Shown here: positions 50,065 to 54,288 of the stretch, piece by piece
Layout: every line of letters begins with the position of its first letter
Position numbering within the stretch: the first letter of the stretch is position 1
From: an uncultured delta proteobacterium
GTDB lineage: Bacteria > Desulfobacterota > Binatia > UBA9968
Length of the DNA: 64,000 bases
NCBI GenBank assembly: GCA_963840855.1
Contig: CAWJBB010000007.1
Location: 36,559 to 100,558 of the forward strand
Direction of reading: 5' to 3'
Translations under genes and position numbers: made by a program
Notes under the pieces: generated by a model
Databases searched by the model: none
Seen by the model: only the letters and a program-made list of their open reading frames with translations
Told to the model about the DNA's origin: nothing

Positions 50065-51258
50065 ATGGAAACCAGAGATATCCAGGCTCGCAGTGAAAGT
50101 TGGAATGTCAGATTGATCGGCCATCACGACCTGAACGGCCACGGTGACGGCATGCAGCTGCTCAAGCACGGGCGTTATCTTTATTTGGCCCATCTCGGTA
50201 CCTCGCCGATGGCGCTGAGTATTCTTGACGCCGCCGATCCAGCCGACCCGCGCTTGATCACGCAGATGCCCCACGCGGCCAACACCCACGCGCATAAAGT
50301 GCAGATCGCCGGCGACATTTTGATCCAGAACCAGGAGCGGCCGTACTTCGATAAGTCGGTTCCGGCCAGCGTGCCCAACGAAGCGGGAATCAAAATTTAC
50401 AGCATCGAGAAACCCACCGAGCCACGCGAGATCGGTTATCTCAAGCTTCCCGGCAAAGGCGTGCATCGCATGTGGTTCACCGACGGCAAGTATGCCCATG
50501 TCGGCGCGGCGCTGCCGGGCATCCACGAGCGCGCGTATTTAATCGCGGATATTGCCAATCCCGCGAATCCGAAGGAAGCCGGACGCTGGTGGATCCCCGG
50601 TACGAAAGAAGGCGAAGAAACGCCGCCCGGCTGGGAACCGTTTGCCGGCGAGCACTTTCACGTGCATGGCGCGATTGCCCACGGCGACCGCTCCTACGTC
50701 GCGCTGGTCGATGCCGGCATGGTCATTCTCGATATCTCCGAAATCAGCAAGCCGAAAATCATCAGCCACATCGATTGGAGCCCGCCCTTTGGCGGCTACG
50801 CGCACACGACGTTGCCGCTACCCGGCAGAAAATTGGTCGTGGCCGTCGACGAATCGGTGAAATACGACTGCAACGAGGGCGAGAAGCGCGTCTGGATCAT
50901 CGATATTCGCGAAGAAAAAAATCCCGTCATCGTCAGCACTTGCCCCGTGCCGCAAGGCGATTTCTGCAAACGCGGGCTGCGCTTCGGGCCGCACAACGTG
51001 CATGAGAACCGTCCTGGCTCGTTTCAGAGCGAGAACATTCTTTTCGTGACTTATTACAATGCGGGGCTGCGGGTCTTCGACATTCGCAACCAGTTTCGCC
51101 CCGACGAAGTGGGCTACTTCATTCCGCCGCCGCCCGACGGGCAGAAAGCGCCGATGTTCAACGATCTCTACGTCGATACCGACGGATTGATCTACGTGAC
51201 GGATCGGATCAAAGGCGGGTTATATGTACTGGAGTACACCGGACCGAAGATTCAGTGA
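50065..51258 (+). CDS. LVIVD-repeat beta-propeller protein
   Basis: Repeated ILD/IAD/VILDIS-x-P-x-x-P units; THAHKV, GVHR, AHTTLP, FGPHN. Confidence 0.88.
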   Translation: METRDIQARSESWNVRLIGHHDLNGHGDGMQLLKHGRYLYLAHLGTSPMALSILDAADPADPRLITQMPHAANTHAHKVQIAGDILIQNQERPYFDKSVPASVPNEAGIKIYSIEKPTEPREIGYLKLPGKGVHRMWFTDGKYAHVGAALPGIHERAYLIADIANPANPKEAGRWWIPGTKEGEETPPGWEPFAGEHFHVHGAIAHGDRSYVALVDAGMVILDISEISKPKIISHIDWSPPFGGYAHTTLPLPGRKLVVAVDESVKYDCNEGEKRVWIIDIREEKNPVIVSTCPVPQGDFCKRGLRFGPHNVHENRPGSFQSENILFVTYYNAGLRVFDIRNQFRPDEVGYFIPPPPDGQKAPMFNDLYVDTDGLIYVTDRIKGGLYVLEYTGPKIQ

Positions 51259-51267
51259 AGATCTTAC

Positions 51268-51352
51268 TTAACCGCAAAGAACGTGGTTCGACTTGGCTTA
51301 TGGTGGGACTTTCGCTCACCATCCTGAGCCCTTGTCGAAGGACTACCCTGAG
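51268..51352. repeat. Nested REP elements (GGTTCGAC..GCTCACC/CCTGAG..TCGAAGG) forming the IS target
   Basis: gtggttcgacttggct..gctcaccatcctgagcccttgtcgaaggactaccctgag; the motif continues after the IS as tctatcgaaggg. Confidence 0.75.
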
Positions 51353-51443
51353 ACCTGTATGATGGATGTTAGGTGTAACCACAAGTCCTCTTTAGCGAGT
51401 ATAGTGATTCATCAAATCGCCATTGAGCGAAGGAGGACATCAG

Positions 51444-52520
51444 ATGAACAGCAAAGCGTTTATTCCCCGCGACTACGACGTGTTTGCGGGACTGGATGTG
51501 GGCAAGAAAAGTATCTCGGTGACCTTTACCAATCAGCAAGGGTTTATCCGCTCCTTGCGCGTGCCGTATAGCGCGGAGCATCTTGTGAACCACGTGCGTA
51601 AACATTTTCCCGATCAGAAAGTGGCCTTTGCCTACGAGGCGGGACCGACGGGCTACGGCTTGTACGATGGGATTGTGGCTCAAGATTACCCGTGCCTGAT
51701 CGCTTCGCCATCGATGATCCCCAAAGCGCCCGGACAAAGAGTGAAGACCAATCGGCTCGACAGTCGAGGCATTTCGGAGAATCTTCGTGGCGGACAGCTC
51801 AAGAGCATTCATGTCCCCGCTGTCCTGTACCGTGAGCTGCGCCATTTGACTCAGCTGCGCGACACCTTTGTCAGCGCGATGGTGGCGATGAAGCAGCGCA
51901 TCAAGTCGCTGTTGCTTATGGAAGGGCTGGAGTTTCCCCCGGCCCCCGCCGGTAGTCAGTGGTCGTTCATGGTGAAGGCTAAACTGAGAAAGCTTCCCTG
52001 TTCTTCGACCGTGCGTTTTGAGCTTGATCAGTTGCTTGACAGTCTGGAGTTCAACGAGAAGCAGATCGTTAAGACAACCCAACAGATCCGCCGCTTGTGT
52101 CAGAACGATGCCGAATTGTCCCAGTGTATAAAGTACGTGATGAGCGTGTCCGGGATTGGCCAGATTGTGGCCAGTCAGCTTTTGGCTAGGATCGGCGATT
52201 GGCGTGAGCTGAGAAACGTGCGCCAACTGGGAGCCTTTCTCGGCTTGGTCCCTACCGAGAACTCCACCGGAGAGCGAACCGATCGAGGATCGATCACTCA
52301 CAGCGGAGACCCGCGGCTGAGAAGCAAACTCATCCAAGCCGCCTGGTCGGCGATCCGAAAAGACGGTGAGCTGAGGGAATTTTTCCGGGCGGTGTGCCAG
52401 AGCCATGCGCGCCCGGTGGCGTCGCGGGTGGCCATTGTGGCGGTGGCCAGAAAACTCACGGTACTGATTTCGGTGGTCTTGATGGAACAAAGACCCTATG
52501 TAGTGAGGAAAAAAGTTTAA
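51444..52520 (+). CDS. IS110-family recombinase/transposase (358 aa)
   Basis: GLDVG, YEAGPTG, KTNRLD, SVSGIG, FLGLVPTENSTG, AIVAVARKL; RBS AGGAGG. Confidence 0.95.
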   Translation: MNSKAFIPRDYDVFAGLDVGKKSISVTFTNQQGFIRSLRVPYSAEHLVNHVRKHFPDQKVAFAYEAGPTGYGLYDGIVAQDYPCLIASPSMIPKAPGQRVKTNRLDSRGISENLRGGQLKSIHVPAVLYRELRHLTQLRDTFVSAMVAMKQRIKSLLLMEGLEFPPAPAGSQWSFMVKAKLRKLPCSSTVRFELDQLLDSLEFNEKQIVKTTQQIRRLCQNDAELSQCIKYVMSVSGIGQIVASQLLARIGDWRELRNVRQLGAFLGLVPTENSTGERTDRGSITHSGDPRLRSKLIQAAWSAIRKDGELREFFRAVCQSHARPVASRVAIVAVARKLTVLISVVLMEQRPYVVRKKV

Positions 52521-52712
52521 TCGGCTCCTTTGACCCAAGAGGAGACCGTGCCCCAGGGAACGCCTCGACGATAGACAGAACCGGGAGAGACAAACTCCTG
52601 ACGGTTCGATCCATGAGATAGAGAGCCCGGGGCCGAGTGCCTTAGAGAGGGGCGCATGCCAAGTCAGTGTGACGGCCATGGTGCCGTGCCACGTATAGCA
52701 GTCAGTCTCTCT
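52521..52712 (+). ncRNA. Putative bridge/seek RNA with target- and donor-binding loops
   Basis: CGATAGAC and CCATGAG match the target; CAAGTC and ATAGCAG match the circle junction; each pair flanks a hairpin. Confidence 0.75.
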
Positions 52713-52863
52713 TGGGTGGGGAAGGAAAAGAGTCATAAGAAAATAAGAGGGCGGTGCCGTGACTTGACATCCACATAGCAGTCTATCGAAGGGCAAAGGG
52801 CGCAGGAAGAAGTTAAATTAACCACAAACGGTGCAAAACACTCGCGCGCTGCTGCCTTCGAGC

Positions 52864-54288
52864 TCACTTGTCCGGCTTTGGGAGCTGTTTTTGGTAGGAT
52901 TTCTTGTCCAGACCGTGGAAGCGCATTTTCCGGTGCAGCGAGCGCACGTCGATGCCGCACTGCTTTGCGGTGGAGTCAATGCGGCCGCCGCATTCGTTCA
53001 ACTTCGCAACCAGGTAGTTCTTTTCTTGCTCTTTAATCCAGACCGGCAGGGGCAAATCCCATGACGCTCGCTCGCAGGTCATCGCCATCGGCAGTTCGAG
53101 GTCGCTTAGATCAACGTTTTCGATGACGCGGCTTTTCGCCAGCACCATCGCCTTTTCCAAGACGTTTTGCAGCTCGCGCACGTTGCCGGGCCAGTGATAG
53201 CGCATGAGTTGGGCCAATGCCCTCGGCGCGATGTTAGCTATCTGCTTTTCGCTGGCGAGGCGGTGGTGGCGCAGGAAATCCTGGACCAGGATCGGGATAT
53301 CTTCAAGACGCTGGCGCAAGGGAATCAAAAAAATGGGCACCACGCTGATGCGGTAGTAGAAGTCACGGCGCATTCTCCCCTCGTTGACGAGTGTTTTTAG
53401 GGGCACGTTCGTTGCGGCGATGATGCGCATGTCGATCTGAACCCACTGATTTGAGCCGAGCCGCTGAACTCGTTGGTCGTTGAGAGCCAAGAGCAATTTT
53501 GCCTGCATCGTTAACGGCATATTCTCGATCTCGTTAAAAAAAAGGGTGCCGTCGTGGGCCTGTTCGATCTTGCCGGGCCTTGCGTTGTCCGCGCCGGTGA
53601 ATGAGCCGCGCTCGAAACCAAAGAGCTCGCTTTCAAGAAGAGTCTCCGGCAATCCGCCGCAATTGATGGTCACGAACGGTCCGCGCCCGCGCGCGCTGTG
53701 ATGATGGATAGCGCTGGCCACCAGCTCCTTGCCCGTACCGGTCTCGCCTTCTATGACCACGGTACTGTTCGTTGGCGCCACCATACGAATGATTTCGAAG
53801 ACCCGATGCATTTCTTCGGTCTGGCTGAGCATGCCGCCGAACTCAAGACCGTTCTTGAGTTGGCGCCGCAGATGGCGAATTTCCGTAAATAGGCTGGCTC
53901 TTTCCAGTACCGCCTGTGTGGACTCCTGGATGGCGGATGCGCTGAAGGGCTTGATGATATAGTCGCCGGCGCCGATTTTCAGGACCCGCACGGCGTCGTC
54001 GATTTCCGCGTACCCGGTCATAACGATCACGGCGACGCTACTCCAACGCTCGACGATCCGCTTGGTCAACTCGATGCCGCTCAAGCCCGGGAGCTGGACG
54101 TCAGTAACGACCAGGTCGATGTCCTCTTTTTCGAGCATCTGCAGCGCGTTCTCCGCGAAATGCGTAACGCTGACCTGGTAACCGCCGTGCTGGTAAAGGC
54201 GCTCCAGTTGCTGGCAGATGAGATTGTCATCGTCAACAACTAGAATATGCGGCGTAACCGCAGCGGATTCGCTTCTCTCCAAGCTCAT
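52864..54288 (-). CDS. Sigma54-dependent response regulator (NtrC/AtoC-like; Walker B reads NE)
   Basis: REC domain, GETGTGKE, ESELFG..GSFTGA, TLFFNEI, WPGNVRELQN, Fis-type HTH. Confidence 0.92.
   Translation of the reverse strand: MSLERSESAAVTPHILVVDDDNLICQQLERLYQHGGYQVSVTHFAENALQMLEKEDIDLVVTDVQLPGLSGIELTKRIVERWSSVAVIVMTGYAEIDDAVRVLKIGAGDYIIKPFSASAIQESTQAVLERASLFTEIRHLRRQLKNGLEFGGMLSQTEEMHRVFEIIRMVAPTNSTVVIEGETGTGKELVASAIHHHSARGRGPFVTINCGGLPETLLESELFGFERGSFTGADNARPGKIEQAHDGTLFFNEIENMPLTMQAKLLLALNDQRVQRLGSNQWVQIDMRIIAATNVPLKTLVNEGRMRRDFYYRISVVPIFLIPLRQRLEDIPILVQDFLRHHRLASEKQIANIAPRALAQLMRYHWPGNVRELQNVLEKAMVLAKSRVIENVDLSDLELPMAMTCERASWDLPLPVWIKEQEKNYLVAKLNECGGRIDSTAKQCGIDVRSLHRKMRFHGLDKKSYQKQLPKPDK

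Follow-up and report, generated by a model that had tools for sequence, protein, structure and literature searches.

An IS110-family insertion sequence of an uncultured Binatia bacterium with a probable bridge (seek) RNA directed at a REP-like repeat

We analysed a stretch of 64,000 nucleotides (the window, in which all positions below are counted) from an uncultured delta proteobacterium (GTDB lineage Desulfobacterota; Binatia; UBA9968; assembly GCA_963840855.1, contig CAWJBB010000007.1, positions 36,559 to 100,558) and found that positions 51351–52781 very probably hold an active insertion sequence (IS) of the IS110 family, the region downstream of its transposase gene encoding a bridge (seek) RNA on the transposase strand, at about 52533–52717. 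We put the probability of this reading at roughly 85%. The boundaries of the element, the covariation between its guides and its flanks and the family of its protein are demonstrated by the comparisons described here. An earlier sequence-only reading of 52521–52712 had proposed a programmable recombinase system whose RNA carries guides both for a repetitive extragenic palindromic (REP) target and for the junction of the IS circle. All the motifs that it listed lie at the positions given, far beyond what chance would produce. Comparison with related loci supports its interpretation where the target loop and the donor loop's 3′ strand are concerned, and leaves the donor 5′ guide and the stems closing the loops undecided.

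The genome contains four copies of a 1431-bp unit which are 100% identical and lie in differing flanks, and this fixes the boundaries of the IS (51351–52781, plus strand) and the AG at both of its junctions (51351–52 and 52780–81, both counted in its length). The non-coding parts measure 93 nt upstream of the gene (51351–51443) and 261 nt downstream (52521–52781). The copy in the window and a second copy share the context CCCTG-AG-IS-AG-TCTATCGAAGGG, while a fourth (L004) has CCCTG at its left and, at its right, a 118-bp tandem repeat of the IS terminus followed by TTTATCGAAGG. Besides these four copies, we found two relatives at 78–79% identity, a 131-nt partial copy and a 34–37-nt fragment in the same genome; it should be noted that the assembly consists of 93 contigs and is 94% complete with 8% contamination. 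The ends carry subterminal inverted repeats, which in the IS1111 group measure 7–17 bp, with CTGTATGATGGATGT at the left matching the reverse complement of the right end, CTGCTATGTGGATGT, apart from one-base indels, and TTGACATCCACATAGC in the right subterminal region is kept among the related loci listed.

We compared 106 loci in total: 20 from a scan of one genome per species (54–99% protein identity), 80 from metagenomes and 6 from the genome itself. The 20 loci came from metagenome-assembled genomes labelled as Acidobacteriota, Binatia, Deltaproteobacteria, Nitrospira, Elusimicrobia and Patescibacteria. The metagenome scan found 285 relatives, of which the best 80 (78–99% identity) were used. 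Four loci on viral contigs, at 29–41% identity, were too distant to serve as input for covariation, and one of them (L109) was used in the protein alignment only. Loci were parsed with anchors at the IS ends and in the non-coding region, and both junctions could be read in 85; those lacking a right end (12 loci) or a left end (5) were left out of the counts needing them (the right end of L023 was not found, and L006 and L020 had no usable ends). The junction pair was AG/AG in 84 of these 85 loci and AG/AA in one.

The strongest evidence for a guide RNA comes from the 5′ guide of the target loop. As the earlier reading had stated, CGATAGAC at 52569–76 is the exact reverse complement of the core G plus TCTATCG at 52781–88. 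The corresponding 8-mer, lying between CTCGA and AGAAC, could be set against a right flank at 88 loci, from which 54 unique guide/flank pairs resulted. When two registers were allowed and Watson–Crick pairs were counted, 13 of these matched at 8/8, 8 at seven plus a G:U, 18 at seven, 9 at six or at six plus a G:U, and 6 at five or fewer. Mean pairing was 6.72/8, as opposed to 4.92 (standard deviation 0.16) with shuffled flanks, and none of 2000 shuffles reached 6.72; the covariation of guides with insertion-site flanks among homologues, offered earlier as a check, is thus strong for the target loop. We also ran a mutual-information scan, over 83 loci that yielded 81 unique rows, in which no guide positions were presupposed and each aligned RNA column was compared with each position of the flanks and ends. 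The positions ranking highest were 52572–52575, which were complementary to flank positions +4 to +1 in 72–78% of the 81 rows and reached a mutual information of 0.84, with position 52702 of the donor loop ranking alongside.

Altogether 27 distinct 8-mers were found, fitting the flank next to each, in a scaffold that is otherwise nearly invariant. Examples include CGAGAGCC with G+GCTCTCG, CGACAGGC with G+CCTGTCG and CGGCTGGC with G+CCAGCCG (the plus sign separating the core G from the flank). An element 99% identical to ours carries CGATAAAC next to G+TTTATCG, and the most distant relative (L025, 56% amino acid identity) carries CCTCTCCC next to G+GGAGAGG, a match of 8/8. The guides fall into two registers: in 41 unique pairs the last guide base lies on the core G, and in the other 13, where five rather than four bases precede TCG, all eight bases lie on the flank and the core is uncovered. 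The 5′ guide duplex therefore seems to be anchored at its far end.

The 3′ guide of the target loop, read earlier as the left guide, was described as CCATGAG at 52611–17 against the left flank and core, CCCTGAG, at 51346–52, and both strings lie at these positions. This guide does track the left flank, but not in the ungapped 6/7 register in which it was read, as the flanks fit only if A52613 is bulged. With the bulge, the four distal positions of the 54 unique pairs score 2.44 against 2.11 for shuffled flanks (3 of 2000 shuffles as high), whereas the ungapped register gives 1.15 against 1.05 (127 of 2000). Flank −2, a T or an A, is repeated at 52614 in every one of the 81 rows, among them a lineage whose flank ends in CAG before the core, and 52611 equals flank −4 (C or G) in 75% of rows. 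A relative with 94% identity in protein (L030) has ATGC-A-TG next to ATGC-TG, and the proximal TG of the guide is identical to the flank in 51 of the 54 pairs. The signal is weaker than that of the 5′ guide because the left repeat arm varies little. After the 3′ guide come two bases which in 81 of 93 loci read AC, as the left IS end begins, and in the lineage of the window AT.

We considered whether such matches could arise without any functional RNA, as DNA relics of end duplications or recombination next to a gene whose protein picks its site through the REP hairpin. The 118-bp duplication in L004 shows that the 3′ terminus of the IS can duplicate in tandem, ATAGCAGTC in the non-coding region resembles a copy of the right junction, and the RNA itself is something that we infer. 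Relics would not, however, keep step with present flanks over 27 guide variants, and variable guide positions on a nearly invariant scaffold are the pattern of a programmable segment, which makes this explanation very improbable. When the 261-nt non-coding region was shuffled 20000 times by mononucleotides, 0.5% of the shuffles contained the 8-mer by chance, 2% ATAGCAG (the donor 3′ guide with its core) and 0.07% ATAGCAGTC.

The target had been identified earlier as a host REP, and this agrees with what we found in the genome. ISPa11 targets REP sequences. In the present genome the motif CCTGAG-N4-TCGAA occurs 72 times, compared to 3.5 times expected from composition, with a repeat consensus of CCGTTCgcCCTGAGCtTGTCGAAGGG, and the same arms are present in the flanks of related elements in other genomes and metagenomes (CCGTTCRTSCTG-AG-NNNNTCGAAGG). 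Insertion thus takes place in the apical part of a widespread palindromic repeat, between a conserved GAG and a variable tetranucleotide. The exact unoccupied site, CCCTGAGTCTATCG, was absent from the genome itself, where four sites at one mismatch were found, each with a single AG. We also folded 78 reconstituted empty sites of 32 nt, a length at which this is no useful test of REP hairpins, and obtained a mean z of −0.18, with at least 5 pairs spanning the AG in 53 of the 78.

In the donor loop, the 3′ strand gave the clearest result. ATAGCAG at 52695–701 is identical to the right end plus core at 52775–81, as had been read from the window, and the same identity was found in 84 of 90 loci, the six exceptions being single-base differences on either side. 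At the base that follows, 52702, the first letter of the right flank is found in 85 of 90 loci, and no other position of the scan reached its mutual information (1.11), so that the covariation check is also borne out at this position. In 97 loci this first further base was never an A, which is what the donor itself has next; agreement of the second further base with the flank was seen in only 6 of 19 unique combinations. In IS621, the 3′ guide of each loop is followed by two handshake bases, which pair with non-cognate DNA after strand exchange and must not pair with cognate DNA (Hiraizumi 2024, PMC11208158). Here 52702 and the bases after the target 3′ guide match this behaviour. The features described here are collected in Table 1.

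Table 1. Positions of the features of the element, its putative guide RNA and its flanks in the window.
Feature	Positions	Strand	Remarks
Left target half CCCTG	51346–51350	+	These five bases flank 3 of the 4 copies in the genome
Left IS end ACCTG, then TATGAT	51353–51363	+	TATGAT (51358–63) is the −10 half of the candidate junction promoter; within subterminal inverted repeat
Transposase gene, 358 amino acids, IS110 family	51444–52520	+	Pfam and NCBIfam
Codons K101–N103	51750–51758		D106 codon at 51759–61
P1 5′ strand (ACCCAAGAG-G-AGAC), possible long-range helix	52533–52546	+	Pairs with 52705–52717
Target-binding module (putative), 84 nt	52550–52633	+	Outer stem GCCCC-A-GGG / CCCGGGGC around 5′ guide, hairpin and 3′ guide
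Target 5′ guide CGATAGAC (right guide of the earlier reading)	52569–52576	+	Complementary to top strand, core G + TCTATCG
Hairpin in target loop (GAACC/GGTTC + GGAG/CTCC)	52578–52607	+	GAACCG 52578–83, CGGTTC 52602–07
Target 3′ guide TCC-[A]-TG + core AG + AT (left guide of the earlier reading)	52610–52619	+	Same sense as left-flank top strand
Donor module (putative)	about 52644–52712	+	Layout the same as in the target module
Donor 5′ guide candidate CAAGTC (reverse complement of G+ACTTG)	52660–52665	+	5/6 against G+ACCTG of the window
Hairpin in donor loop (GTG/CAC + ACGGC/GCCGT)	52667–52692	+	ACGGC 52672–76, GCCGT 52683–87
Donor 3′ guide ATAGC + core AG + TC (handshake-like)	52695–52703	+	
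P1 3′ strand (GTCT-CTCTTGGGT)	52705–52717	+	Includes CTCTCT (52707–12), a closing strand of the earlier reading
Right subterminal repeat and TTGACA (−35 half of the candidate junction promoter), then right end ATAGC	52764–52779	+	
Right target half TCTATCG	52782–52788	+	At 3 of 4 copies; the fourth (L004) has TTTATCG after the 118-bp terminal duplication

The protein belongs to the IS110 family. It matches PF01548 (E = 2.4e−13) and PF02371 (E = 4.7e−23), which are the N-terminal DEDD/RuvC-like and C-terminal Transposase_20 domains, and scores 205 bits in NCBIfam NF033542, ‘IS110 family RNA-guided transposase’, where the cut-off is 140. Residues D18, E65 and D106 are invariant in the transposase alignments. 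The protein also contains the motif GL-P----STG (G267 L268 V P T E N S274 T275 G276), of which G267, L268 and G276 are invariant in 5 diverse sequences; a G(L)-P----S/T-G motif with the nucleophile has been described for the family (Siddiquee 2024, PMC11187229). The nearest plasmid-borne relatives are rhizobial IS110-family genes without an IS name (33–35% identity), the IS4321 transposase of the IS1111 family is 23% identical over 87% of the length, and the IS621 and ISCro4 proteins, whose structures are solved, match in the C-terminal domain only (E about 1e−8). From the long 3′ non-coding region, the subterminal repeats and the GL-P----STG motif, the organisation of this IS110-family element is of IS1111 type, a label that is based on organisation and on pairwise identities.

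A number of our observations weigh against the reading given above, and the first of these concern the donor 5′ guide. The donor loop had been read as matching both ends of the IS. The part resting on ATAGCAG stood, but CAAGTC never compensates for the ACCTG left end: all 22 loci with this end, including the window, keep an A opposite the C. The last two bases of this guide drift while the left-end DNA is constant (CAAGAC, CAAGTA, CAAGAA; also CAAAAC), and AAATTC in L023 and CAAAAC in L025, both next to ACTTG, match at 4/6 each. Both IS ends are almost invariant in the set, which places the donor guides beyond the reach of covariation. CAAGTC as a guide for the left end is the weakest part of the reading.

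These points would be accounted for if only the target module were a real guide RNA and the second module were not a full donor-binding loop, the protein reading the left IS end by means of the subterminal repeats and CAAGTC being scaffold or a chance match. It has been suggested that end recognition may differ in the IS1111 family (Siddiquee 2024, PMC11187229), and the short seekRNAs, tabulated in a review at 82–96 nt, have the size of the first module alone. We nevertheless consider this alternative unlikely. The identity of the donor 3′ strand with the right end and core and the tracking of the target flank by 52702 would have little explanation if this strand did not read the donor/target junction, and both modules share one layout. 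Furthermore, the left end found most often, G+ACTTG, is complemented perfectly by CAAGTC (25 loci with CAAGTCA). Where the end is ACTCG, at two loci, the guide reads CGAGT, although 19 ACTTG loci carry CGAGT too, giving a G:T.

A second group of observations concerns expression and strand. No sigma-70-like promoter was found in the linear element. In a circle keeping one AG, TTGACA (52764–69) and TATGAT (51358–63) would be 17 nt apart, and such a junction-promoter arrangement has been described for the family (Pares-Guillen 2025, PMC12288879). Contigs from 4 RNA-labelled runs of 4 studies cover parts of the gene and the non-coding region, among them a 180-nt contig (X7) on 52541–52720 with two differences, one of which is the G-to-A at 52574 that defines the TTTATCG-directed variant. 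It should be noted that these contigs indicate presence only, as they may be DNA and give neither strand nor ends, and that no meaning attaches to the parts of the element which they leave uncovered. A further 152-nt contig from an RNA-labelled run (X9) joins 51373 to 52645, skipping 1271 nt, with 6 other letters between; it may represent a deleted relative or a chimera.

The minus strand, with z = −3.39 and −2.41, is no worse at folding than the plus strand, and the types of mismatch show no preference for either, with 11 of G:T type and 13 of A:C type in the 5′ guide and 12 and 17 respectively in the 3′ guide. As covariation with double-stranded DNA is symmetric, the same data could come from a guide RNA transcribed from the minus strand, its segments pairing with the opposite DNA strands. 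Other evidence makes this hardly credible: all guide RNAs of IS110 and IS1111 elements characterised in the main texts cited here lie on the transposase strand, the candidate junction promoter is directed into the plus strand, and a pair in the consensus fold (alignment columns 71/94), which among 68 sequences reads G:U 47 times and A:U 21 times, would become C:A on the minus strand in those 47.

The region 52515–52785 as a whole folds no better than shuffles (z = −1.11), which is not informative. For the module folds we obtained z values of −2.99 (the 84-nt target module, which folds as drawn; 2 of 200 shuffles as good), −2.09 and −3.09 (the 185-nt RNA bounded by the P1 helix; 0 of 200). P1, a helix of 13 bp, was present in both the single-sequence (minimum free energy) and the consensus folds, with 93.8% of cells paired in 68 relatives, and is almost invariant, while the outer stem of the target module was 99.4% paired but invariant. 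In the target-loop hairpin, with 95.6% and 99.6% of cells paired in its two stems, a single pair had changed at both of its positions; the donor-loop hairpin was 97.8% paired and had one GC-to-AU change on both sides. Both inner hairpins are thus well kept.

The strands of the closing stems proposed earlier lie where they had been placed (TCGGCTCC 52521–28 and GGGGCCGA 52629–36; AGAGAG 52644–49 and CTCTCT 52707–12). In the first stem the inner GCTCC/GGGGC is 98% paired in the 68 relatives, though invariant, and the outer TCG/CGA only 40%; GGGGC can alternatively pair with GCCCC at 52550–54, extended by GGG/CCC, to give the 84-nt module. The second stem is 96% paired, but CTCTCT also fits P1 with 52533–46, and the AGAGAG strand has a 3-nt deletion in 4 of the 68 sequences, several of which show uncompensated changes in the stem. 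The earlier model leaves 88.6% of cells paired and ours 96.7%, with 4 pairs changed on both sides in each, and the modelled long-range helix together with the CCCCAGGG/CCCGGGG stem fits at least as well as the earlier stems. Since the helices are nearly invariant in the 68 relatives, covariation cannot choose between the two models.

The remaining points of this kind come from the protein, one of the copies, individual guides and Rfam. At the third acidic position of the DEDD motif the transposase appears to have an asparagine, as Asn103 (in KTNRLDS) aligns with the first D of KTDAVDA in ISCro4. This Asn103 is invariant in the clade, and an Asn likewise occupies the position in a rhizobial relative at 33% identity and in IS4321 (which has an insertion with an adjacent D). 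One of the four identical copies (L003) has the right flank seen in the window but an unrelated left flank, and 6 of the 54 unique guide/flank pairs match at 5/8 or fewer. A scan of 51200–52900 with Rfam 15 gave no family match, the best hits being snoRNA-like with E values of 0.2–6; it should be noted that Rfam may hold no bridge RNA model.

Taking these points together, we favour an element whose transposase is guided by the RNA of its own 3′ non-coding region; here we infer the production of the RNA, its strand, ends, fold and binding by the protein, and the chemistry. The target module (52550–52633) would present two guides around its hairpin, and in the donor module (about 52644–52712) CAAGUC would pair, imperfectly, to the top strand at the core G and left IS end. 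Loaded with this RNA, the transposase would join the circle junction ATAGC-AG-ACCTG to the REP-like CCCTG-AG-TCTATCG by recombination at the AG which both contain, and the two bases after each 3′ guide (AU here and AC in most relatives for the target loop, UC for the donor loop) would match the partner DNA across the crossover as a handshake. Read on the opposite strand, the core would be CT, the 5′ guides would have the same sense as the left half, and the 3′ guides would be complementary to the right half with the handshake bases after them, which is the arrangement of IS621.

Two further claims of the earlier reading are best seen in the light of published systems. In the seekRNAs of IS1111 elements the match to the top strand precedes the other, and the IS110 type has the opposite order (Siddiquee 2024, PMC11187229); the right-guide-first order read from the window is this published order. 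The AG core is CT on the other strand and gives the IS621 layout in that frame, so that the AG core and the right-guide-first order are two views of one fact. On this view, relative to the recombination site, the gene and the RNA would point opposite to those of IS621.

The element resembles the IS1111 elements with seekRNAs (ISEc11, ISPa11, ISKpn4 and ISPst6). As in the window, these have their non-coding region downstream of the gene and subterminal inverted repeats, their ends form a junction promoter in the circle, and their seekRNAs match the target in two short segments, of which the one for the top strand lies 5′ of the one for the bottom strand (PMC11187229). The first module, at 84 nt, falls within the 82–96 nt of the short forms, and the whole RNA would measure about 185 nt compared to 148–172 nt for the long forms, both ranges being from a review. 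The transposase has 358 amino acids compared to the 330–350 quoted for the family (PMC11187229). The target and core differ from theirs, and the protein is 23% identical to IS4321, the one named member that was aligned.

With IS621 (Durrant 2024, PMC11208160; Hiraizumi 2024, PMC11208158) the element shares two pseudo-symmetric loops for target and donor, a conserved A between the 5′ guide and the hairpin, handshake bases after the 3′ guide that covary with the partner DNA and, when read on the other strand, the CT core. It differs from IS621 in that the RNA lies after the gene and not before it, the recombination site is inverted relative to the gene, the 5′ guide covers one core base or none (41 and 13 unique pairs, respectively), the target 3′ guide has a bulged base, and the similarity of the proteins is confined to the C-terminal domain (E = 1e−8). 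ISPpu9 and ISPpu10 of Pseudomonas putida, which we compared by description only, are likewise IS110-family elements that insert into REP sequences, recombining at an AG that stands at either side of the element, but have their bridge RNA upstream of tnp, together with the small RNAs Asr9 and Ssr9 (Pares-Guillen 2025, PMC12288879).

Judged by these features, the RNA of the window is probably a guide RNA of a kind already described. Four features go beyond the main texts on IS1111 seekRNAs and bridge RNAs, namely the bulge in the 3′ guide, the 5′ guide's two registers, the extensive series of natural target programs and the equivalence with IS621 in strand frame; we do not claim them as unpublished. 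A broader reading, which we regard as possible but doubtful, would make the clade a natural library of at least 28 target-loop programs on a nearly invariant 185-nt scaffold, in metagenome-assembled genomes that carry the labels of six or more phyla. As part of the same reading, the system may follow rules beyond those of IS621, with a 5′ target guide that pairs in either of two registers relative to the cut site and a 3′ target guide in which one base must bulge; the donor may be recognised more through the 3′ guide and the subterminal repeats than through the 5′ donor guide; and P1 may be the signal by which the RNA is cut out of the transposase transcript at its 3′ end.

Several other features of these loci were observed. 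In the fourth copy (L004/L007; contig C27, about 131.97–133.54 kb) the element's own 3′ terminus is duplicated in tandem, the 118 bp being equivalent to 52664–52781 of the window; an AG precedes both units, and the inner junction lies inside the donor 5′ guide (CAAG-TCAGTG). This could be due to off-target recombination at AG-TC, replication slippage or a collapsed repeat in the assembly. The 79%-identical relative (L005; contig C41, about 52.5–53.8 kb) lies inside a perfect REP hairpin, CCACCGTTCGTTCCTG-AG and AG-GCCCTCGAAGGACGAACGGTGG, and its 5′ target guide CGAGAGCC fits its own flank at 7/8, with G as handshake base. Its ends deviate from the family (TCCTG at the left, ATAG-AG at the right) while its donor guides do not, its reading frame is seemingly broken, and it is probably a decaying copy.

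The 78%-identical relative (L006; contig C85, about 157.7–158.9 kb, in reverse-complement orientation) has non-coding ends depleted of G by deletion. Its 3′ non-coding region contains 9% G, compared to 27.5% in the sister copy L005, while the coding part is normal at 27.5%; when the two copies were aligned, 57 of the 83 G's of L005 were gapped and A, C and T were mostly retained, a strand-specific effect which may be either an assembly artefact or real decay. In the window, the 80 nt to the left of the insertion hold a second REP unit, CCTGAGCCCTTGTCGAAGG (51284–51340). These 80 nt are about 85% alike between the window and L009, a 99%-identical element in another assembly, while the right flanks differ, and a larger composite repeat may surround the element. 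On its right side, a gene on the minus strand (52864–54288) encodes a 474-amino-acid protein which, from its translation only, resembles a sigma-54-dependent response regulator, with a receiver domain, a GETGTGKE ATPase motif and a C-terminal helix-turn-helix.

The general picture of how IS110 and IS1111 guide systems work is unchanged by these results. For the uncultured soil and sediment bacteria that carry this multi-copy IS, the proposed guide RNA would account for its choice of site, the loop of a widespread REP-like hairpin. With its variable guide letters on a constant scaffold, the clade would also provide a natural demonstration of guide reprogramming in an IS1111-type lineage. The recombinase is only 23–35% identical to IS4321 and the rhizobial IS110-family genes compared, and for engineering it may offer a compact pair of recombinase and RNA, distant from IS621 and ISCro4, for which many target loops have been naturally tried.

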